Below are positions 49,305-63,956 of a stretch of DNA of 64,000 nucleotides, in pieces. Under the pieces are notes generated by a model. The model had not been told where the DNA came from, did not search any database, and worked only from the letters and a program-made list of their open reading frames with translations. How positions within the stretch are numbered: the stretch's first letter is position 1; the number at the start of each line of letters is the position of its first letter. The DNA is from an uncultured Methanoregulaceae archaeon (lineage in GTDB: Archaea > Halobacteriota > Methanomicrobia > Methanomicrobiales > Methanospirillaceae): positions 2,208,001 through 2,272,000 of the forward strand of contig OY969564.1 in assembly GCA_963701095.1 (NCBI GenBank), written 5' to 3'. The position numbers and the translations under genes are program-made.

Positions 49305-51086
49305 ATGAAAGTCCGTACGCGATCACGCCTGATTCTTGCTGCAATGGCCTTTATTTTCTTAATCGCCCTGAGTTTTATTACCCAGTTTGTTATCCTTGAT
49401 TCCTTCAGGACGATGGAAAAACAGCAGATGACAGCAAATGTTGAGAGGGTTATTTCAAATCTCAACAACCAGGAAACAACAGTTGCGGCAACCTGCAGGG
49501 ATTGGGCTGGTCGTGATGAGACGTATGCTTTTTTGGGAGGACTGAATTCGTCAGGGCCTCATGGTACATTTGATCAGCCGCTCCTTTTGGGAACTCTCGA
49601 TATCGATTATCTTCTCATGTACAATACTTCGGGACAACTGGTTTTTTCTGAAGGAGCCATGACATCAGACGGAACCCCTGAAGTCATTCCGGGGCAGCTC
49701 CAGAATATAATCGACGACAGTATTATTCCTGCGGGAGTGCCCGAGGGAGTTTCCGGAAGACATGGGGTATCTTTTCTGAATGGTGAACCGGTAATTCTTG
49801 CCGGCTACGCTATCCGGGGAAGTGACCCGTCAGAGCCTTTAAGGGGTACGCTGGTGATGGTGAGGGTCCTTAACAGCCAGAGGATTGGGGATATGGAAAG
49901 CGTACTCCAGATCCCAGACTTTTCTATTGGCCCCTCTTCCGTGGTTTCAAGTGCTGGTGTACTGAATGCCACGGATATACAAAAAATGAAAAAAGGCCAG
50001 ATCATTAGTCAGCCCGTAAACAACAGCCTTATGGGTGGCACGGCAATGATCAGTGGTATCGAGGATAAACCGACATACCTGGCGCTGCAGGTTTTTACAG
50101 ATCGTACATTGTTCACTGATGTGCAAACGTCGATCCTTATTATCGCGGTTTCCATTATCATATTGAGTTTGGTTTTCATTGTCGCGGTACAGTTTTTACT
50201 TCAGCGTTTTGTTCTCGGACCGCTCAGTGCCCTTGATGATGATATAAAAATCGTCGGTAAATCAGGTGATCTCTCCCGTCGCATCCCGGAAAAAGGAGAT
50301 GACGAGATTGTTTCCGTTACCCGGGCCTTAAACCAGATGCTTGCAGACCTTGAGGAAAAAAGGGCCGAGCTTTCTGCAGCACGTAGTGAACTTGCCGAAC
50401 GTAACCGGGATCTTGAGGAATATAACAGGAAGGCAAATCTGTACCTGGATATTTACCTCGACGTAATTACGTATGAGATACTGAATGCCATCATGGGTCT
50501 CAGAGGATATGCCGAATATCTCAATGATATGGCTCATGAAAACGAAAAGCGGTTCCTTAAAAAGATCATCGATCTCGCCCAGAAAAGTAACAACGTTATT
50601 CGTAATATCGAGACAATCAGCCGCATTTACAAGATGCAACCCGGCGTTGTTGCTGTCAACCTTGAGAATATCATTCAGCATGAAATAGCCGCACGTCCGA
50701 ACCTTCATATCACTCTTGAGGGATGTGCCCTTTCGGTGTGTGCCAACGATATGCTCGGCGTAGTCTTTGACAACCTGTTTTCGAATAGTCTGAAATTTGG
50801 CGGATCTGAGGTGTCTATAATGGTCTCTGCCCGGCAAAAAAGTAAGGGTATGCTCGAAATATCGGTCATCGATAACGGGCCGGGTATTGCCGATGAAATG
50901 AAACCCGGTATTTTTGACCGGTTTGCCAAGGATACCAAAACCCGGAGCAGTTATGGCCTCGGGCTCCACATTGTCAAGATGCTCATAGAAGGGTATGGGG
51001 GCCGGGTATGGGCCGATGACAGGATCCCGGGCGACGCATCCTCCGGCGTTGCAATATGCTTTACTCTTCGTCTTGCCAAAAAATAA
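49305..51086 (+). CDS. Sensor histidine kinase, CHASE4-HAMP-HATPase
   Basis: DWAGRDETYAF (CHASE4-like); SGDLSRRI...GDDEI..LNQML HAMP; NLFSNSLKF, DNGPGI, GLGL. Confidence 0.88.
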   Translation: MKVRTRSRLILAAMAFIFLIALSFITQFVILDSFRTMEKQQMTANVERVISNLNNQETTVAATCRDWAGRDETYAFLGGLNSSGPHGTFDQPLLLGTLDIDYLLMYNTSGQLVFSEGAMTSDGTPEVIPGQLQNIIDDSIIPAGVPEGVSGRHGVSFLNGEPVILAGYAIRGSDPSEPLRGTLVMVRVLNSQRIGDMESVLQIPDFSIGPSSVVSSAGVLNATDIQKMKKGQIISQPVNNSLMGGTAMISGIEDKPTYLALQVFTDRTLFTDVQTSILIIAVSIIILSLVFIVAVQFLLQRFVLGPLSALDDDIKIVGKSGDLSRRIPEKGDDEIVSVTRALNQMLADLEEKRAELSAARSELAERNRDLEEYNRKANLYLDIYLDVITYEILNAIMGLRGYAEYLNDMAHENEKRFLKKIIDLAQKSNNVIRNIETISRIYKMQPGVVAVNLENIIQHEIAARPNLHITLEGCALSVCANDMLGVVFDNLFSNSLKFGGSEVSIMVSARQKSKGMLEISVIDNGPGIADEMKPGIFDRFAKDTKTRSSYGLGLHIVKMLIEGYGGRVWADDRIPGDASSGVAICFTLRLAKK

Positions 51087-51136: not shown

Positions 51137-51751
51137 CTATCCGTGTCGCTCTCTGGTATCGATTAGGAATCCTTCATCGCTCACTGTGAAAGGTAGCATC
51201 TTTTCAGAAAGCTTGGCTCCCTGCATTTTGGGGATATTGAGAAAACGTTTGAGTTTATCCCCTTCAATTACGGTGGTCACCTGAATAATCCCGTCTGCCA
51301 TAGCCCGCAAAAGTGCCTCATGCCGTTCGGGGAGAACACCGCGATCTACAAGCAGGAGGAGAACATGGCCGGTTTTTGCTGCGGTGAGGAGCCGGGAAAT
51401 AGCGTCCCGGAATTCGGAAAGAGGCGTATCAAGGAAATAGAGTGAAAACTGATCTACGATCACCAGGTTGCAGTTCCCAGGGAGTGTAAGAATATCAAGG
51501 AGCGGTCCGGGAGCGGTTCCGTGCATTTCTTCAATATGGAATCCCTTCACCGGCAAAATTCTCAGGAGTTTCATGTCATCGCGGATCTCGTCTGATGCTC
51601 TTGTGGTGATATAACACACGTCTTTTCCGTCAGCTGCCGCCTCTGAGGCTATATATTGGGCATAGATTGATTTGGCGAGCCCCAAATCTTCTTCAATCAG
51701 GATCACGCTCTTTTTCGGAAAATTATCTAAGCCATGAACGAGTGTCATCAA
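51137..51751 (-). CDS. KaiC/RAD55-like (ArlH-like) RecA-fold protein with degenerate Walker A
   Basis: GLD..P.KSVILIEEDLGLAKS, LVIVD, ADGII, R.L.IPKM.G....PFTV...G..ID. Confidence 0.8.
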   Translation of the reverse strand: MMTLVHGLDNFPKKSVILIEEDLGLAKSIYAQYIASEAAADGKDVCYITTRASDEIRDDMKLLRILPVKGFHIEEMHGTAPGPLLDILTLPGNCNLVIVDQFSLYFLDTPLSEFRDAISRLLTAAKTGHVLLLLVDRGVLPERHEALLRAMADGIIQVTTVIEGDKLKRFLNIPKMQGAKLSEKMLPFTVSDEGFLIDTRERHG

Positions 51752-53532: not shown

Positions 53533-54216
53533 GTGAACCTAATTATCCTGAAATACGGAATCTTCATCGGGGCTCTTCTTGCAACCACCCTGTACGTCTC
53601 ACCTGCATTAAATCCGCTTTCAGCAGCGTCAGGAGAGCAGAACACCAGCGAGATCAATGCACAATCCGTCTTTGCGTTTGGCTCGCAGGTTTTTTATAAA
53701 CAGGTTTCCCAGCCCGGAAATGAGTATATGCAAGGAAGTGTTCAGGGGTATTCCCAGAACCTGATCCCAAATGATACAGAAAACCAGGCCTATTCCTCAT
53801 CATGGCAGGCTGGTGTTGCAGAATTTGAGTCCGGATATAACCGGTGTACAGCCGCACTTTTTGATCTTGCGTCAGTACCATCGCTGCAGACCAATCAGCA
53901 GAAAATGGCTGTATGTCAGGAGTTTTTGGATGGCGAAAACGAAATGACCCAGGCCAGGAATGATTTCCTTTCAGCTAAGAGCAGTACTTCGCCTGCAGTC
54001 GACTCAGGTTTTACCATTGCCATGGTACTGGAACGGGTTGACGAGATTATCCAGAGTTCGGATGATGCAGACGAGGCCTGCATGAAAGCAGTACTTGCCG
54101 ATCATAATCATGACCCTGCGGGATTTTCACAAAATCTCAAGGATACTCAAAGTGCGGTACAGGAAATGAAACGCGTTTATCCTGAGCTTGAGGTGTTGAG
54201 CACGGATTTTACCTGA
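53533..54216 (+). CDS. Secreted or membrane-anchored helical hypothetical protein
   Basis: N-terminal hydrophobic segment; 227-aa ORF. Confidence 0.65.
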   Translation: MNLIILKYGIFIGALLATTLYVSPALNPLSAASGEQNTSEINAQSVFAFGSQVFYKQVSQPGNEYMQGSVQGYSQNLIPNDTENQAYSSSWQAGVAEFESGYNRCTAALFDLASVPSLQTNQQKMAVCQEFLDGENEMTQARNDFLSAKSSTSPAVDSGFTIAMVLERVDEIIQSSDDADEACMKAVLADHNHDPAGFSQNLKDTQSAVQEMKRVYPELEVLSTDFT

Positions 54217-54300
54217 AATTTGCAGAGCAAAAGGAATGCGATCTATGAGAAAAAACGAAAAGCCGGAGAAATACCAGGAAACCCATCGAAAACAGGTGAT

Positions 54301-54633
54301 ATGTGCATGAAATTACCCGATCCAAGAAGACTGTTCGTTGATGACCGAGCCATAAGCGATGAAGAGTTCAGGAATCAAAACATTGTATATTTAATCACCG
54401 CTGCAGTTATGATGATTGCAGGGCCGCTTTTCATCTATCATGGGTTCAATCTCCTTCCGTGGCCGTATACAGCAAAGTGGGGGGCCCTTTCGATTGCTCT
54501 GGGGTCATTTGTCCTCGTCTTCGGTTTTAGCATCTGGCAGGATCGTCAGGTTCAAATCCTGCAGCGGATGTATATCAAAGACGCCACCGAGATAAAACAG
54601 CTCCTGAGGGAATTAAAGGAAGAGAGAAAATAG
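54301..54633 (+). CDS. Two-TM hypothetical protein
   Basis: AGGTGA RBS; two TM helices and a helical tail. Confidence 0.65.
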   Translation: MCMKLPDPRRLFVDDRAISDEEFRNQNIVYLITAAVMMIAGPLFIYHGFNLLPWPYTAKWGALSIALGSFVLVFGFSIWQDRQVQILQRMYIKDATEIKQLLRELKEERK

Positions 54634-56300: not shown

Positions 56301-56648
56301 ATGAAAACGGGTTACGGGTGGATTGAGATCTATGCTGTCCGGTATGACCATGATATAATTGTTCACCGCGATCGTTCGATCGAGAAAAGATCCAAGAAAA
56401 AATCCCGCAAATACCGCAGTTTCTTTAAACATACACCTTTGACTGACAGCGAGCTCGCTTTTCTTGAGGAAGAAAAACCCGATATTGTGTATATCGGGAC
56501 CGGACAATTCGGTGATCTTCCCATTACCTCAGAGGCACTTCTGATTCTTGCAAAGTTTGGGGCAATAATCCGGCCGACCCCAGAGATAATGAATTTTTTT
56601 TCCTCTGAATATCGCTCATTTGCAGCTATCCTCCATGTAAAGTGCTGA
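56301..56648 (+). CDS. Mth938-like (DUF498) domain protein
   Basis: GYG.I......Y.HDIIV, P..V.IGTG..G, PT.E, AAILHV.C. Confidence 0.85.
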   Translation: MKTGYGWIEIYAVRYDHDIIVHRDRSIEKRSKKKSRKYRSFFKHTPLTDSELAFLEEEKPDIVYIGTGQFGDLPITSEALLILAKFGAIIRPTPEIMNFFSSEYRSFAAILHVKC

Positions 56649-56852
56649 TGTGAGTTGAAATGCCGGTAAAAGAAAGCCGCTTTTTTAAATTTTTCAGATT
56701 GTAACCATAGGTTCAGATCTTTTTGAAAAACAGCGGGATATCGTTTTTTGAAGCATGATCTGTTTTATTTTCATGGAAATCTATTTAGGGTTTGAAGAAT
56801 AGGTTTTGGATACTCGATATTAACCGGATTTTAAGTATCCTGAAGTGTAATA

Positions 56853-58798
56853 ATGGCTGAAAAACGTGAGATCCTTCATGAGCTCGGCGAAGATGAACTC
56901 CTCCTTCCTACTCTCCTCAACTCCGCCCTGAAAGCGAACGACAGGATCAAATATTATTTTACTCTTCTCCAGGCAGCAAAAAACCATGCAGATAACCCGG
57001 ATCAGAGCCATTCGAATCTTAGGGCTGAACGGGAGTCTGTTGGGATTTCCGATCCTGATCTCGATATAGTTGTTGGCGGTTCAACAAGGGCCGGAGAAAA
57101 AGAATATACCATCCCTTTGGCAGGACTGATTTTTCATGAAATGTCGATAGCCATTGAAGAAATGGTATCTCCCCTTGCCTCAAAAAATTCTCCAGAAGTG
57201 GACAGTTTCAATGAGAGATTTACCCACCTGCGTAGTTCCCTCTCTCTATCCGGAGAAGAACCGGTATCTGGCGATCTTATCAATAATATTACGCTGGCCG
57301 ACCGGGGCAGTGGTACTGACAGCCTTCACCTGCTGGTAATGGATCTTCATAAAGCCATAAATTCGCTGCAGACGCAGATCGCGAACGAAGAAATCGATGG
57401 TGCACTCGGCTATCTTCTCATCGACCCGGATCGGGAAATGGTCCGGGCCTTCATGACTGGCGTCAACCGCACAGCCCCGCTCAAATTCGGTCATCCCGGT
57501 CTTGCGACAATCGCAACCCGAACCGGGGACAAACTGGTAATCCAGAATGATATTGGCCTTACTGATGCACATGTACTCGTCGTCACAGTAAAAGATCAAA
57601 CGATTACCATTACTTATACGGATATTCACCTTCCACGGCTGCATTTCTTTCAGAGTCTCTTCCATCCATTTCGGGTGCAGTGGAGCGATACGATCTCCCG
57701 GACGCCGGAGAAAAAATTCGAAGCCCCGGTATACCACCTTTCCGTGGGAACTTTCACTGCACACGATGAAACAGATGCTTGGGATTTCCTCACTCATGCA
57801 GGGTCGCGTGTCGTCTTTTTAATCGATTGGAACCGGGCCCGGAAAAGATTGCGCAATTTTGTTCCGAATGCTGATGCAATTGAAATTCTTGCCCGTGCAG
57901 CTGAGGAGGAAACAGGGCACATCGCTTTCCTTGAGCTGGGGGGGAAAGGCTGATCTATGAGGCTCTCGAACTGGCATCAAGTATCCCTCTCCGGTACGGT
58001 GAACCGTTACATGCGATTCTTGGCAGGGAGCAGACCATGGAATATCTTCAGTTTGTCCTCCGGACAGCATCGAAGGGACTTCTGGCAAATACGTCCCGTT
58101 TTCTTCTTCAGAATGAGATCCGTGCCGAGCTGCTCCGGTATTTCCGGACGGCACACGAAGGGATGATGGATCTCTGCGAAGAACATGCCTCGTATTCCAT
58201 AGAAATCGCTTCAATCGTCCTTGAATCCTTATGGCTTGCATCTGATCAGCACGATCCTCTGATCATTTCGCGCAATGCCGCCCGGGGGAAGGAATGGGAG
58301 CATAATGCTGACGATCTTGTGAACAGGATGAGGAATCTCTCCCAAAGGATCCAGAACCCGGAATTCTTTATCTCTCTTATCGCAACCGCAGATGACGTCG
58401 CCGACTATCTGGAAGAGGCTGGCTTTTTCATTACCTTGATCCCGGTTCATACCGATTCCAAAGATATTTTCTTTGAGCTCAGGAACCTTGCGGAGCTGGT
58501 CCTGAAGGGATGCCGTGGTTACCTGAAAATCCTGATTGCAGCCCAGGAATTCCATAGCACGAGCCAGCGCGAAGATCTCAAGGATCTGCTGACCGCTGTT
58601 GACGAGGTCTTTTCAATTGAGCGGCTCTGTGACGAATCCCTGAGAAGGACAGAGCGGGTGATCTTTGAGCAGTGCACCGATTTTAAGGAATTCAATCTAT
58701 ACCTCGAGATTGCGAGAACCCTCGAAGAAGCTTCCAATGCCCTTTTGAAAGTTGCTTTCCACGTCAGGGACTACATGATAGAGAGCATGAACCGATAG
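56853..58798 (+). CDS. About 650-aa protein: unknown N-terminal region plus C-terminal DUF47/PhoU-like domain; split at G7 run 57938-57944
   Basis: Adding one G gives LGGERLIYEALE..GREQTMEY, joining ORFs 56853 and 58037; tail EHNADD, ADDVADYLEEAG, IERLCDE, LEEASN. Confidence 0.8.
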
Positions 58799-58810
58799 GA
58801 TGGATACCAA

Positions 58811-60412
58811 ATGACCGACGAAACGCCCCGGATTGTATTTTTCGGACCAGATGTTAAGACAGAAGTATCCTCGGATGATTTCGGGAATAAGGCGTCTGTA
58901 CTGACAAGGATGTCGGCTCTGGGTATCCCGGTGCCCCCTGGGTTTGCCCTATCTGTTGACCTCTGCGAGGAATATTTCCGGAATGGTCAGGTTCTTCCCG
59001 ATGATGTACCTGAATTACTCCGGCAGGGACTTGCCTTCATCGAGCGGTCTACCGGGCTGCGATATGGTGCCAGTCGAAGGCCTCTGCTTGTCTCGGCACG
59101 CTCCGGAGCGGCCGTGAGCATGCCCGGGGCAATGGAGACGATCCTTAATATCGGGCTCAACCGTGTTACCGTGCGAGGCCTTATTGCACAGACCGGGAAC
59201 CCGAGATTTGCCTGGGATTCTTACCGGAGGTTCCTTGAATATTTTGGAACAATTGTTTTCTCCCATGATCCTGGGTCATACCGGAAAATTGAACGCCAGG
59301 TTATGGAAGAGGAACACGTGCCAGATGAATCCGTTCTTGATTTTGCCGCCATGAGAAGCATCGCTGAACAGTACGAACAATTGTATCCCCGTACAAACGG
59401 TAAGCGATTGCCGGATGATGTCTTCTCGCAGCTCGAACTCGCAACAACGGCGATCCTCCAGTCATGGAACAGCTCCCGTGCCCAGGCTTTCAGAAATATG
59501 AATCTCAATTCAGGCGCACGAGGAACTGGTGTTACGATAGAAGCCATGGTTTTTGGAAACCTGGGCTCGCTCTCCGGGGCTGGTGTTGCATTCTCACGAA
59601 ACCCCTTGACCGGCGTTAACGAACTTCTTGTTGATTTCAAGTTCGGCGCACAAGGTGAAGATATTGTATCAGGACTCATGGGGGTCGTGTCGCACCAAGA
59701 ATTCGCCGCAAGGATTCCTCTTGCTGCGCGTGAATTATCCGAGGCTGCGAAGAGACTTGAGTTCATGTACCGTGATATGCAGGATATAGAATTCACGGTT
59801 CAGGAAGGGAAACTTTTCATCCTCCAAAGCAGATCCGGGAAACGCGCTCCGCTCGCCGCCCTGAAAATCGCTGTAGATCTTGTCCACGAAAATATTATTG
59901 CAAAAGACGAAGCAGTTAGCCGGGTGAGGGATATCGATGCAGAGGCGATCACCATTCAGACTATCAAAACCTCTAAATCGCCTCTTGCTGTGGGTATTTC
60001 AGCTTCCATGGGTGTAGCATCTGGGAAAATTGCCCTTAGTGCCGAATACGCAATCGAATTATCTAAAAATTCGCCGGTCATCCTCGTCCGGGAAACCGCA
60101 AATCCGGATGACATTGGTGGTATTGGTGCCTCTCTTGGTATCCTTACGGTGAGAGGTGCAAGAACCTCCCATGCAGCCGTTGTCGCACGACAAATGGGGA
60201 AAGTGTGTATTGTGAGTTGTGGCGACCTGAAAATTGATCTGGCTCGGCGTGCGTGCACCTTCCCCGGACGTGATCTCTACGAGGGTGATTATATCACCCT
60301 TGATGGCGGGAATGGACAGATTTATGAAGGGATCGTTCCCGTGGTAGTGGAGAAACCAGTAGAACTTATTCAAGAGCTGCGTATGTGGAATTCAGATACA
60401 CCTGCCCTATGA
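58811..60412 (+). CDS. PPDK-like protein: ATP-grasp plus phosphohistidine domains, no pyruvate-binding barrel
   Basis: GNK..L, GIPVPPGF, PLLVS.RSGA.VSMPG.M.T.LN.G, MVFGN, AQGEDIVSG, DIEFT, LQSR.GKR, TSHAAVVAR; stops at 533 aa. Confidence 0.9.
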   Translation: MTDETPRIVFFGPDVKTEVSSDDFGNKASVLTRMSALGIPVPPGFALSVDLCEEYFRNGQVLPDDVPELLRQGLAFIERSTGLRYGASRRPLLVSARSGAAVSMPGAMETILNIGLNRVTVRGLIAQTGNPRFAWDSYRRFLEYFGTIVFSHDPGSYRKIERQVMEEEHVPDESVLDFAAMRSIAEQYEQLYPRTNGKRLPDDVFSQLELATTAILQSWNSSRAQAFRNMNLNSGARGTGVTIEAMVFGNLGSLSGAGVAFSRNPLTGVNELLVDFKFGAQGEDIVSGLMGVVSHQEFAARIPLAARELSEAAKRLEFMYRDMQDIEFTVQEGKLFILQSRSGKRAPLAALKIAVDLVHENIIAKDEAVSRVRDIDAEAITIQTIKTSKSPLAVGISASMGVASGKIALSAEYAIELSKNSPVILVRETANPDDIGGIGASLGILTVRGARTSHAAVVARQMGKVCIVSCGDLKIDLARRACTFPGRDLYEGDYITLDGGNGQIYEGIVPVVVEKPVELIQELRMWNSDTPAL

Positions 60413-60431: not shown

Positions 60432-60677
60432 TTATTCTTTCTTGTAATCCTTCAGGGAATCAAGCGTTTTCTGATCAACTCGAATTTTTCCTTTAAGCTT
60501 CCGTACCTTTATCCAGGTTTCCAGATATTTCAAAAATCCATTTTTTCCGATGGAAGAGTCATCTAATACTTTCTTTGCTGCCTGGTATTCCGCCGTGGTG
60601 TTTGCAACCTGTTTTTCCGCATCGCGGACGGATTTCTGGTATGCTGCATCAGTCATTCGGGCAGGGAGGGGTTTCAT
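60432..60677 (-). CDS. Small basic helical hypothetical protein
   Basis: 81-aa ORF with GAGGT RBS. Confidence 0.55.
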   Translation of the reverse strand: MKPLPARMTDAAYQKSVRDAEKQVANTTAEYQAAKKVLDDSSIGKNGFLKYLETWIKVRKLKGKIRVDQKTLDSLKDYKKE

Positions 60678-60699: not shown

Positions 60700-61434
60700 T
60701 CATGCTGTAATTACATCGATTGATCTTTCGGTGTTCTTATTCCGTGCTGCTGCTTGCTCGATCCGGGCATAATTCCTCAGGATCCTGGTTAATGTATCGT
60801 GTAACTCTTGGTTCTTGGTGAGAAAGATAAACATAACGGTATTGTCGGCTATGATAAGGGGAGAAGATCCTGTCAGTCTCAAAACCTCGTCGAACTTCTT
60901 TTTCGGTTCATCCGGTGCAGGGGGTTTCCTTCTCTGATAGTGCTGGTATATCATGAGGATGGATTCGTTATCGAGGTGTTCATAAAATGTTTTTAGTTCT
61001 GAGAATGCGAGATGTTTTTCTGTGACATTCTTTTCCTTGATCCCCGTATCCGGATCAATAAATATCAATGATTCAATGGGAAAATTCTCGTAGATGCTCT
61101 GGAAATACTCATCGCGTTTCTGTTTTGAGAAGATCTCGTTTTTCTCGATGCGTATCCGGACTTTTTTTTTGTTGATATCATCTTTGAGTTCCTTTATGTA
61201 ACTTTTCAATTCATCATAATAGTGATCGACTTCTTCTGTTCTCCTGAGACGCCGGAAACAGGCTATCAGATCAGTATTTCGGCAACCGGGATTTCCTTTG
61301 AAATCTGGATCGTATTTTGTCAGCATGGGGACGATAACGATACGATCGATTCCACCCTTGAATCCCTTGATGATTGAAGTAATAAGATCATACTTGAACA
61401 GATCTTTAGTATCACCAAAATATTTCGCATTCAT
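60700..61434 (-). CDS. Hypothetical protein
   Basis: 244-aa ORF; motifs M...YFGD..D.FKY.L, FIDPD.GI, IYQH; AT-rich. Confidence 0.7.
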   Translation of the reverse strand: MNAKYFGDTKDLFKYDLITSIIKGFKGGIDRIVIVPMLTKYDPDFKGNPGCRNTDLIACFRRLRRTEEVDHYYDELKSYIKELKDDINKKKVRIRIEKNEIFSKQKRDEYFQSIYENFPIESLIFIDPDTGIKEKNVTEKHLAFSELKTFYEHLDNESILMIYQHYQRRKPPAPDEPKKKFDEVLRLTGSSPLIIADNTVMFIFLTKNQELHDTLTRILRNYARIEQAAARNKNTERSIDVITA

Positions 61435-61789: not shown

Positions 61790-62994
61790 ATGTACGCAAT
61801 GAAACGCATGAACAATGATATGGCAGTCTCACCGATTGTCGCGACGCTCGTCCTTATCGTCGTCGCCGTCATCGGTGCTGTTGCAGTCGGAACCATTATG
61901 GGTTCCTTCTCAACCCAGGTATCGAAGCAGGCAAACGCAGGGCAGGCATCGTCCGCATCCCAGACCGAGATTCTCGTTGCTGGTTCGACAACCCTCCAGC
62001 CCGTTGAAATCAACCTTGCATCAGACTATGCAAAGATCAACCCCGGTATCCAGGTTAACGTCCAGGGTGGATCATCAGGTGTCGGTGTAACCGCTGTTGC
62101 AACCGGTATCGCTGATATCGGTGCATCTTCAGCCGCATCCAAGATCACCGCAGGACAGGCAGCAAACCCGTCCAACCCCGGCTACCAGAACCTTTACGCA
62201 CAACTCATCGGCGGCCGTGCAGTTGCATGGATCACCAATGCCGCATCCCCGGCTGTCGCATCAGGCACAGTTAGCGCATCTGATCTCCAGCAGGCATACA
62301 GCACTGCCCTTGGATCAAACGGTACCCTTCCAGCTCATGGGCAAACAGCAGCAGCATTTCAGGAAATGCCATTATGGTTTCCCGTGCAGACTCATCTGGA
62401 ACTGAAGACGATGCAAGCACCTGGCTCTTTGGTGCAACCGGCAAGATCAACTCCTCATACACTATTGCAGAGACTGGCAACGAAGGTCTTCGTTATTATA
62501 TCGCTACGACGGCACACACACTCGGTTTCTGCGACGCAGGCTGGGCACTCACCAACCCGTCCGGTATCGAGATCCTCAACGTCACTGACTGGACCGCAGC
62601 AACAAGCCCAGACTCACTCTACACTCCAGAAGTAGCAACTGGCACAGTAGGAGAAACCTACGGTGCAGTCACCAAGACTGAAATGATGGATGCTCTTAAG
62701 GACTGGTATTTCGGCAGCGCACAGGACCACTCAGGCAGTGCAGTTGCAACCTCTGGCGTACACACTGGCCAGCAGATCGGTAACTACCCCCAGGGACTTG
62801 TCGGCGGTATGTACTGGATCACCCCAGCTACCGTCCCAACCGTCTTTACCGCCCGTGGAACCATCCAGACCCAGGGAAGCAGCGCAGCATCAAGCACAGT
62901 CAAGGACCTCATGAACTTCGCAGTGTCACCCGTAGAACAGCCAGCATTTGACAACGTCGGTGACTTACAGATTAACGAGTTCGCCTCGACATAA
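61790..62994 (+). CDS. pstS: PstS-like phosphate-binding protein with archaeal type IV pilin class III signal peptide; split by a -1 indel at about 62325-62340
   Basis: NDMA|VSPIVATLVLIVVAV; AGSTTLQP, VQGGSSG.G, ADIGASS; shifted frame SWAN...VSRADSSGT; directly upstream of pstC. Confidence 0.85.
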
Positions 62995-63003
62995 GACCAT
63001 ATA

Positions 63004-63019
63004 ATTTTTTTCTTTTTTT
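63004..63019 (+). terminator. T-rich tract after pstS, probable partial terminator
   Basis: Two T runs shortly after the pstS stop. Confidence 0.5.
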
Positions 63020-63038
63020 GACTGAGTGTAATTAAATA

Positions 63039-63956
63039 ATGAAAAGCAAATCAGAGATTCATAAAAATCTCTTCCTCTTCTGTGCCTTAGCCACTGTGGT
63101 CACAGTTTTTTCCGTCATTTTGTTTATTCTGATAAATGCAGCACCAGTATTTCTCCAGTACGGCTTTGGGTTCATCTTCGGAACCACATGGGACTACCCC
63201 ACTCACCAGTATGGTGCCTGGCCACTCATAACAGGGACATTATTACTGACTGCAGTGACGATGGTGATCTCGGTTCCTGTGGGCATTGCAACTGCGGTTT
63301 TCCTCTCTGAATGGGCGCCGCCGTGGCTCGACCGGTCCCTCTCCACGCTTATCGAACTTTTGGTAGGGATACCTTCGGTCGTTTTTGGTATACTCGGTTT
63401 TTTTGTATTCCGGGATTTTTTCCGGTATGGTATCAATCCGTTCATCGCAAACAATCTTGGTTTCATTTCATTCTTTCAAGCAGGTTCTACAGATGGTTTC
63501 GGTATCCCGATAGCATCGTTTGTCCTTAGCCTGATGATCCTTCCCACAATTATTGCTCTTTCGACAGAGGCGATGAGGAGTGTCCCGGCAGAGCAGCGTG
63601 AAGCATCAGCTGCTCTTGGCGCGACTGACTGGGAAACCATACGGGATCTCATCCTTCCCTCGGCAGTCCCCGGAATAACGACCGGCGTGATTTTGGGAAC
63701 GATGCGAGCAATGGGTGAGACTATGGCTGTGGTCATGCTCGCCGGAGGTGCGTATGGAGTTCCAACGTCCGTTCTTGATTCTGTCCTGCCACTGACTGCA
63801 AAAATCCTCATCGATCTTGAGAATTATATCGCCGAACCGGAACCAAGGAGCGCTCTTTTCGCTCTTGGCGTCCTACTTATGGCAGTGGAAATCGGTTTTG
63901 TTTTAGCTATTCATATCATTACCGACAAAATGAAGCGGCGGTATGGCGGTGCCTGA
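63039..63956 (+). CDS. pstC: Phosphate ABC transporter permease PstC
   Basis: YG.WPLI.GT, IELL.GIPSVVFG, MILP.I, REAS.ALGAT.WET, RAMGETMAV. Confidence 0.95.
   Translation: MKSKSEIHKNLFLFCALATVVTVFSVILFILINAAPVFLQYGFGFIFGTTWDYPTHQYGAWPLITGTLLLTAVTMVISVPVGIATAVFLSEWAPPWLDRSLSTLIELLVGIPSVVFGILGFFVFRDFFRYGINPFIANNLGFISFFQAGSTDGFGIPIASFVLSLMILPTIIALSTEAMRSVPAEQREASAALGATDWETIRDLILPSAVPGITTGVILGTMRAMGETMAVVMLAGGAYGVPTSVLDSVLPLTAKILIDLENYIAEPEPRSALFALGVLLMAVEIGFVLAIHIITDKMKRRYGGA

Follow-up and report, generated by a model that had tools for sequence, protein, structure and literature searches.

That truncated pyruvate, phosphate dikinases (PPDKs) can be working histidine kinases has only just been shown, in a 2026 report on VadK (Rv1127c) of Mycobacterium tuberculosis (EMBO Rep 2026; PMC13400623). 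VadK, itself a truncated PPDK, uses ATP and Mg to autophosphorylate on His422. It is a regulatory histidine kinase that controls the methylcitrate cycle, and it was purified after co-expression with its operonic partner Rv1126c, with which it co-purifies (PMC13400623). VadK is the closest characterised relative of a 533-residue protein, the half-PPDK, encoded in a 64,000-nucleotide stretch (the window) of contig OY969564.1 from an uncultured Methanoregulaceae archaeon. The half-PPDK gene follows a gene for a 648-residue protein, the partner, which ends in a PhoU-like domain. The two genes probably encode a self-contained phosphoryl-transfer module of two proteins with its origin in PPDK; in some organisms both proteins are fused into one chain. 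The module is neither a pyruvate enzyme nor a broken gene. The genome is a single contig of 2.63 Mb with a completeness score of 86%, and the closest protein relatives carry the name Methanoregula.

The half-PPDK resembles VadK in possessing nucleotide-binding and phospho-histidine domains without a barrel, and in having a protein partner encoded beside it, as VadK has an operonic one. A looser precedent is provided by two-component small-molecule dikinases and rifampin phosphotransferase (RPH), in which an ATP-grasp domain and a swivel histidine pass phosphate to a separate acceptor domain and the components can be separate proteins (PMC12167813, PMC4844700). HpeHI is a two-component dikinase (PMC12167813). 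In such systems the ATP-grasp domain is separated from the part that holds swivel and acceptor, whereas here ATP-grasp and swivel domains lie in one chain and the presumed acceptor is another, unclassified protein. No RPH-like domain was detected in the partner by Foldseek, VIA-align or Pfam. Because ATP-grasp and swivel share one chain and the partner has no RPH-like match, the pair is not a two-component system of the HpeHI type. Phenylphosphate synthase, likewise a two-component small-molecule dikinase, is a further precedent. In a literature search that covered sources other than subscription journals, no report was found joining a PPDK-like protein with DUF47/UPF0111/COG1392.

The half-PPDK and its partner

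The half-PPDK gene (58811–60412, plus strand) encodes an ATP-grasp domain, a linker and a phospho-histidine swivel domain, and matches the Pfam families PPDK_N (E 2.9e-34) and PEP-utilizers (E 1.9e-19). The protein spans positions 14–523 of the 865-position PPDK model TIGR01828 (524 bits, against a cut-off of 843) and aligns to solved PPDKs over the nucleotide-binding and central domains only (1kbl 18–511 and 5jvn 23–510, E about 1e-116), with approximately 40% identity to PPDK across the first 510 residues. The Pfam scan gave no match to PEP-utilizers_C in the 533 residues, and the chain ends at the linker that in PPDK precedes the phosphoenolpyruvate (PEP)/pyruvate barrel. The catalytic T-S-H is present as T452-S453-H454; the codon of His454, the predicted phospho-carrier, lies at 60170–60172 on the plus strand within the motif GARTSHAAVVAR, which aligns to the catalytic-histidine region of solved PPDKs. 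In an alignment of 42 family members, K27, R97, E327, Q339, R341, T452 and H454 are invariant, the first five being the counterparts of ATP-site residues of Clostridium symbiosum PPDK. Judged by these residues, the half-PPDK keeps all that is needed to form a phospho-histidine. It has the ATP-site residues and T-S-H of canonical PPDK (EC 2.7.9.1), but no TIM barrel (PEP-utilizers_C), and it falls in a separate clade.

These results agree with an earlier sequence-only reading of the window, made without database searches, which had described a protein retaining the ATP-grasp motifs and T-S-H and stopping near the linker, and had foreseen matches to PPDK_N and PEP-utilizers without PEP-utilizers_C. 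It had also noted that no open reading frame (ORF) for the barrel follows; the next two ORFs (60432–60677 and 60700–61434) are indeed on the minus strand. Its exclusion of a frameshift is likewise upheld, and a recent truncation is contradicted by relatives of about 530 residues (range 521–552), orthologues that are not full-length PPDKs. Orthologues of both the half-PPDK and the partner keep their length at 50–90% identity across genera. A tree computed quickly by maximum likelihood unites seven full-length PPDKs in one clade (Shimodaira–Hasegawa-like approximate likelihood ratio test, 98), from which the 42 half-PPDKs are excluded. The bacterial half-PPDKs group with the one from Nitrososphaeraceae (94), and the base of the half-PPDK group is unresolved; the tree row 'fullPPDK_G030' is a mis-extracted ORF on a 9.4-long branch, and a truncated copy (L020) was left out. 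A single origin of the half-PPDKs is allowed by this tree, not demonstrated. Complete PPDKs above the TIGR01828 cut-off are also present in three of five pair-bearing genomes. Because of the separate clade and the coexisting complete PPDK, the truncation is old and the protein no stand-in for PPDK. On the evidence of these sequences, the truncation is ancient and family-wide, neither recent nor due to a frameshift.

The half-PPDK differs from the VadK type in its model scores and in its partner. It scores 423 bits on the VadK-type model NF004531 / PRK05878, under the cut-off of 456 bits, and all 42 members of the half-PPDK family score higher on TIGR01828 than on NF004531. The latter model is passed by two plasmid genes, of Rhodococcus (L065, 768 bits) and Streptomyces (L066, 479 bits), which are preceded by a protein of approximately 200 residues (L065 3360–3965; L066 3264–3893) rather than by the 648-residue PhoU-tailed partner. 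The half-PPDK family represents a second lineage of the truncated-PPDK idea, phylogenetically broader in the searches made here. The two 200-residue proteins are homologous (hhalign 99.8%). They have a winged-helix-like start and, in the Rhodococcus-type rows, an invariant C-terminal motif RVDSxHTVWFQxHEHxLRxTGRE, which with the Streptomyces row becomes S-x-HTVWFQ-x-HE; 256 relatives were found, some of them named MarR family. A comparison of this small upstream protein with partner residues 97–177, which share a DSxH...H helix, gave an hhalign probability of 20.7% (E 1.1e-3) that fell to 12.6% with the Streptomyces row, and was kept as a lead only.

The partner gene occupies 56853–58798 on the plus strand. 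An AlphaFold2 model of the protein, computed from 86 diverse homologues, has a mean predicted local distance difference test (pLDDT) score of 92.6 for the whole chain, and the N-domain modelled alone reaches 92.9. The N-domain (residues 1–415; 56853–58096) matches no known family. It is predicted to comprise a four-helix bundle (approximately residues 12–177), an alpha/beta part (approximately 188–323) and a helical linker. Its sequence is strongly constrained: all 86 rows share R122, D257, R262, W277, W326 and N327, 85 share each of H214, H240, H259, D325 and R330, and 84 share H356. In the bundle, a motif DSxHxxxxDxH contains H159 (82 of 86 rows) and H166 (81 of 86).

The C-terminal part of the partner (residues 416–648; 58097–58798, stop codon included) is, by fold and profile, a PhoU-like/DUF47 bundle. 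Residues 416–647 form a six-helix bundle that Foldseek matches to 3l39 (E 5e-4, TM 0.83) and also to 2iiu, 2olt and PhoU 4q25, and the partner-family profile matches 3l39 with an E of 5.7e-8. Pfam PhoU_div matches 40 of 54 family members at E<=1 (best 8.4e-11), and is weak on single sequences (23.9 bits for the window fragment and 20.3 for the G003 orthologue, against a cut-off of 24.4). The last 230 residues share the fold and acidic motifs of DUF47/PhoU_div (PF01865; 3l39, 2iiu, 2olt) and of PhoU. Stand-alone DUF47 proteins, however, measure approximately 210 residues, whereas here the domain is the tail of a 648-residue protein tied to the half-PPDK. The description of this protein in the sequence-only reading, as a long front of no recognised fold with a DUF47/PhoU-like tail, is accurate, the front measuring 415 residues.

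Pairing, fusion and distribution

The partner and the half-PPDK occur together. Among 41 relatives, the partner is present in three genomes, and a half-size PPDK (>50% identity) in the same three; the other 38 have neither. Seven of the 38 hold only more distant PPDKs (36–40% identity; whole frames of 928–976 residues, incomplete or broken ones shorter), and in the remaining genomes no PPDK matched at E<=1e-60. Of 251 genomes drawn evenly from the phylum, 11 contain the partner, and exactly those 11 have a PPDK frame of 535–564 residues, on the same contig and strand and beginning approximately 10–45 bp after the partner. A further 41 genomes of the draw have full-length PPDKs only (888–1008-residue frames, 37–44% identity) and no partner.

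A scan of one genome per species yielded 31 partner loci, spanning Methanoregulaceae, Methanospirillum, a Nitrososphaeraceae archaeon, Acidobacteriaceae, Hyphomicrobium, Reyranella, Pelobacter/Geobacteraceae and a betaproteobacterium. In 28 of them, which are all 28 informative loci, the half-PPDK follows immediately on the 3' side of the partner; of the three misses, two stem from contigs that break off at the partner and one from a spurious match of 34 residues. Downstream frames with a clear start measure 531–544 residues, and many of the frames share 4–8 bp with the partner gene; the annotated pair on the Methylocella tundrae plasmid overlaps by 8 bp. Plasmids of Methylocella tundrae and Aquabacterium olei carry the pair in RefSeq, where the first gene is named 'DUF47 family protein' or 'phosphate transport regulator' and the second 'PEP/pyruvate-binding domain-containing protein'. 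With the partner as query, a search at E<=0.001 gave 1145 cluster representatives, which belong to archaea and to several bacterial phyla. The 150 representatives listed include the fusions P0272 (1205 residues) and P0301 (1200 residues), which carry PhoU_div, PPDK_N and PEP-utilizers in one chain, and a third fusion that is a cut copy. The pairing claimed by the sequence-only reading is thus conserved in the genome draw and in the species scan, and is accompanied by natural fusions. Conserved pairing and fusion fit a partner that supplies an acceptor or substrate domain in trans. A predicted complex of the partner (648 residues) with residues 340–533 of the half-PPDK scored 0.00 in two runs, which is uninformative either way.

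In the window the partner gene is divided between two frames, 56853–57953 (366 residues) and a second frame that continues to 58798, with the break at codon 362. Contigs from four of four public runs contain one extra base behind 57936/57937, ahead of seven consecutive G: the base is T in the contig of the probable source sample, T and G in two DNA runs from relatives, and C in a metatranscriptome contig. All four extra bases are the third position of the Leu362 codon, and the contig from the probable source sample (2009 bases) is otherwise identical to the window. With the base restored, the frame reads FLELGGERLIYEAL, the same as the orthologue. Since all four runs carry the extra base, the break at 57936/57937 is a one-base assembly deletion and the real gene is intact. 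The corrected gene encodes 648 residues and matches the intact orthologue L022:4771-6714 (82–91% identical); the two window pieces are 82% and 91% identical to the G003 orthologue and meet at FLELGG/ERLIY, and two genomes of the same genus have the partner as a single frame of 648–651 residues. The gap from the partner stop codon (58796–58798) to the half-PPDK ATG (58811) is 12 bp. Where the sequence-only reading had reported an upstream gene of about 650 residues ending 12 bp before the half-PPDK, length and gap are correct, whereas the gene is not a single ORF in the window and the frame break had been read through unremarked.

Two other genes have broken frames. The pstS-like gene downstream is read in overlapping frames (61790–62632 and 62374–62991), where the G003 orthologue is one frame of 306 residues; this split is probably another assembly indel. 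The PPK1 gene of the genome (G000:C1:55610-56160), beside a CHAD gene (53668-54393), is in two pieces in different frames, which may be a further sign of such errors. Both fit the pattern of a long-read assembly with indel errors.

Proposed mechanism and alternatives

In the mechanism we propose, the half-PPDK would bind ATP in its ATP-grasp domain and phosphorylate its own His454, as homology suggests. Because the nucleotide-binding domain is of the PPDK type, inorganic phosphate (Pi) would probably be consumed and AMP and pyrophosphate (PPi) released. The swivel domain would then carry the phosphoryl group to a site on the 648-residue partner instead of to a barrel, a step suggested by the pairing, the fusions and the precedents of PPDK, RPH and HpeHI. 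The putative acceptor site is placed in the N-domain, with its invariant R122, D257, R262 and N327 and five His/Asp positions that vary in no more than one or two of 86 rows. In the last and weakest step, the PhoU-like tail might bind phosphate or metal, or couple the module to phosphate/polyphosphate homeostasis, and in some methanogens a SixA-family phosphatase encoded by the adjacent gene would reset the phospho-histidine.

The data do not decide whether the pair is catalytic or regulatory. As a catalytic system, it would be a two-component dikinase in which the N-domain is a new acceptor or substrate domain, with the net reaction ATP + Pi + X -> AMP + PPi + X-P, or running backwards to yield ATP from AMP + PPi + X-P. 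Here X stands either for a phosphate-type compound found everywhere (Pi, PPi or polyphosphate) or for a metabolite yet to be identified. A catalytic role is a serious possibility, which we hold at somewhat less than even confidence. It is consistent with the six fully identical partner positions and the near-invariant His/Asp/Arg set, with fusions in the order partner then half-PPDK, and with gene overlaps that suggest translational coupling. The module is also self-contained and patchily distributed, being plasmid-borne in Methylocella and Aquabacterium; PPK1, PPX, CHAD or PPK2 genes lie near it in L024, L030, L069 and L075, and HpeHI offers a precedent (PMC12167813). The N-domain, however, matches no known catalytic fold or family, and no conserved third gene points to a pathway. 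To our knowledge, PhoU-family domains are regulators and not parts of enzymes, which also counts against a catalytic role. A regulatory role, close to VadK and to the sensor proposed in the sequence-only reading, is a tentative alternative: the half-PPDK would be a histidine kinase that reads adenylate/Pi/PPi status and phosphorylates or gates the partner, whose PhoU-like tail would then modulate phosphate, polyphosphate or cation transport proteins, with SixA resetting the system. VadK argues for such a role, being a truncated PPDK that works as a regulatory histidine kinase with a co-purifying operonic partner (PMC13400623). So do the SixA-family genes adjacent in L022/23, L024, L025 and L067, the PhoU-like tail itself, and the variable neighbours, often phosphate, polyphosphate or P-type ATPase genes. 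The four-helix bundle with its conserved DSxHxxxxDxH points the same way, and residues 12–177 align to CheA P1 domains, with Z-scores (7.2–7.7) in the range that the tool calls generic. Yet H159 and H166 are lost in four to five of 86 rows, the helical-bundle Z-scores are within the stated noise of the tool, conservation extends to no response regulator or other output gene, and the SixA adjacency is limited to one methanogen family.

Two further explanations concern the integrity of the genes, and both are highly improbable. A split canonical PPDK, with the barrel encoded elsewhere and assembled in trans, would account for a half-PPDK that ends exactly at the linker preceding the barrel. The whole genome, however, holds no stand-alone PEP-utilizers_C: both matches lie inside full-length PEPS/PPDK-like frames of 769 and 839 residues, far from the window, so that a barrel in trans is not available. 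Moreover, three of five pair-bearing genomes also hold a complete PPDK, and the conserved neighbour is a PhoU-tailed protein, not a barrel. Decay, with a recently truncated PPDK beside a frameshifted pseudogene, would be in keeping with a partner in two frames and a pstS-like gene that also looks shifted. It is contradicted by the absence of the break from the contigs of all four runs, the probable source sample included, and by the retained length and identity of the orthologues of both genes.

Several observations weigh against the phosphoryl-transfer module as proposed. The N-domain has no recognisable catalytic fold, with no Foldseek match at E<=0.001 against PDB and no recurrent Pfam family in the 54 partner-family members at E<=1. 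A VIA-align search of 48,161 chains returned for it only helical-bundle (best Z 9.5), T4 MotA C-terminal domain (Z 8.7) and ACT-like (Z 7.2) matches, all inside the stated noise of the tool; the best ESM Atlas match to residues 1–414 (score 0.76) is an unnamed cluster, and no Hpt Pfam match was found in the 54 members. No partner histidine is strictly invariant, H240, H356, H159 and H166 included, and the data therefore do not require a protein phospho-acceptor. Among 40 loci compared over approximately 8 kb, with unequal flank lengths and methods, 31 have no phosphate gene nearby and their neighbours vary, and the SixA adjacency is confined to one archaeal family. Contigs of one metatranscriptome, 90–99% alike, fall on both genes; none bridges the junction, and DNA carry-over is possible. 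Finally, phosphoryl transfer to the partner, Pi dependence and the acceptor are inferences.

It is possible, if unlikely, that the module is a new enzyme in which an unseen catalytic fold replaces the PPDK barrel and reversibly links the ATP/AMP/PPi pool to inorganic phosphate chemistry. Examples would be PPi made, or polyphosphate extended, from ATP and Pi, or ATP made from AMP, PPi and a phosphate donor; if so, methanogens, ammonia-oxidising archaea and soil bacteria would handle phosphate-bond energy by a route that has gone unrecognised. The PhoU superfamily, to which the partner tail belongs, is mechanistically unclear. The acceptor, once worked out, would assign a function to both proteins; it might also tell what is bound by PhoU-like domains, and could uncover a new connection among the adenylate, pyrophosphate and polyphosphate pools. 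The pair is present in the cultured bacteria Methylocella tundrae T4, Aquabacterium olei and Reyranella soli, and is thus directly testable.

Neighbouring genes

Phosphate or polyphosphate genes lie within approximately 8 kb of the pair in nine of the 40 loci. In the window these are pstS and pstC. L022/23 has a PhoU-AbrB regulator, pstS and pstC, and L027 a PstS-like-OmpA fusion. PPK2 is found in L024, PPK1 and CHAD in L030, PPK1 in L069, and PPX, a CHAD-metallophosphatase and PPK1 in L075; L063 has an alkaline-phosphatase family gene, and L067 a PhoU-domain protein beside an ABC ATPase. By a rough estimate, made without a computed test, this proximity is above chance and far from universal. 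The pst or PstS-like genes themselves occur in three loci (the window, L022/23 and L027). The phosphate link drawn by the sequence-only reading therefore survives as a tendency, but not as a phosphate sensor next to pst, which the neighbourhood does not establish because other loci have unrelated neighbours. PPK1, CHAD and PPK2 exist in the genome of the window, and the nearest is approximately 65 kb from the pair, which rules out adjoining polyphosphate genes there.

In the window, the pstS-like gene and pstC (61790–63956, plus strand, assigned by model matches) are context outside the conserved module. The pstS-like gene, in two frames, begins at 61790, 1.38 kb downstream of the half-PPDK and close to the 1.4 kb given earlier; pstC is at 63039–63956. 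Between them and the half-PPDK lie the two minus-strand ORFs already mentioned, neither of which has a Pfam or NCBIfam match. A homologue of the 244-residue ORF (60700–61434), 72% identical, lies upstream of the pair in L024. In G003, SixA-like and other genes replace both ORFs, which shows that the locus has been rearranged.

A gene of the SixA family of phosphohistidine phosphatases abuts the 3' end of the half-PPDK gene in four Methanoregulaceae loci, L022/23 (L022:8540-9028), L025 (11488-11991), L067 (7440-7946) and L024 (11532-12024, minus strand). The genes pass NCBIfam TIGR00249 in the three loci scanned (79.9–105.8 bits, against a cut-off of 74.5), and the L024 copy was identified by tblastn only. 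The SixA homologue of the window genome itself is 230 kb away (G000:C1:2497752-2498243).

Upstream of the partner, a small plus-strand gene (56301–56648, 115 residues) is weakly DUF498/Mth938-like (Pfam DUF498 E 1.1e-5). The sequence-only reading had placed an Mth938-like gene here; the position is right, and the family call, at 25.9 bits, is below the Pfam cut-off of 33. L026 has a homologue (57% identical) 1.6 kb downstream of the pair, a DUF498 gene is near the pair in L048 (E 1.4e-15), and tblastn gave no homologue in the remaining loci searched besides L026. The gene probably does not belong to the fixed components of the module.

P-type cation ATPase genes occur near the pair in L028, L044, L045, L052 and L076, with a fragment in L073. 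The hosts of the five are Acidobacteriaceae, Reyranella and one archaeon. The genes encode E1-E2 ATPase and cation ATPase N and C domains, except in L076, which has only E1-E2 and hydrolase domains, and universal stress protein genes accompany them in L044 and L052. Elsewhere in the window, a shortened KaiC/ArlH-like ATPase ORF of 204 residues (51137–51751), matching only the C-terminal half of the models, lies beside a gene for a CHASE4-HAMP sensor histidine kinase of 593 residues (49305–51086).

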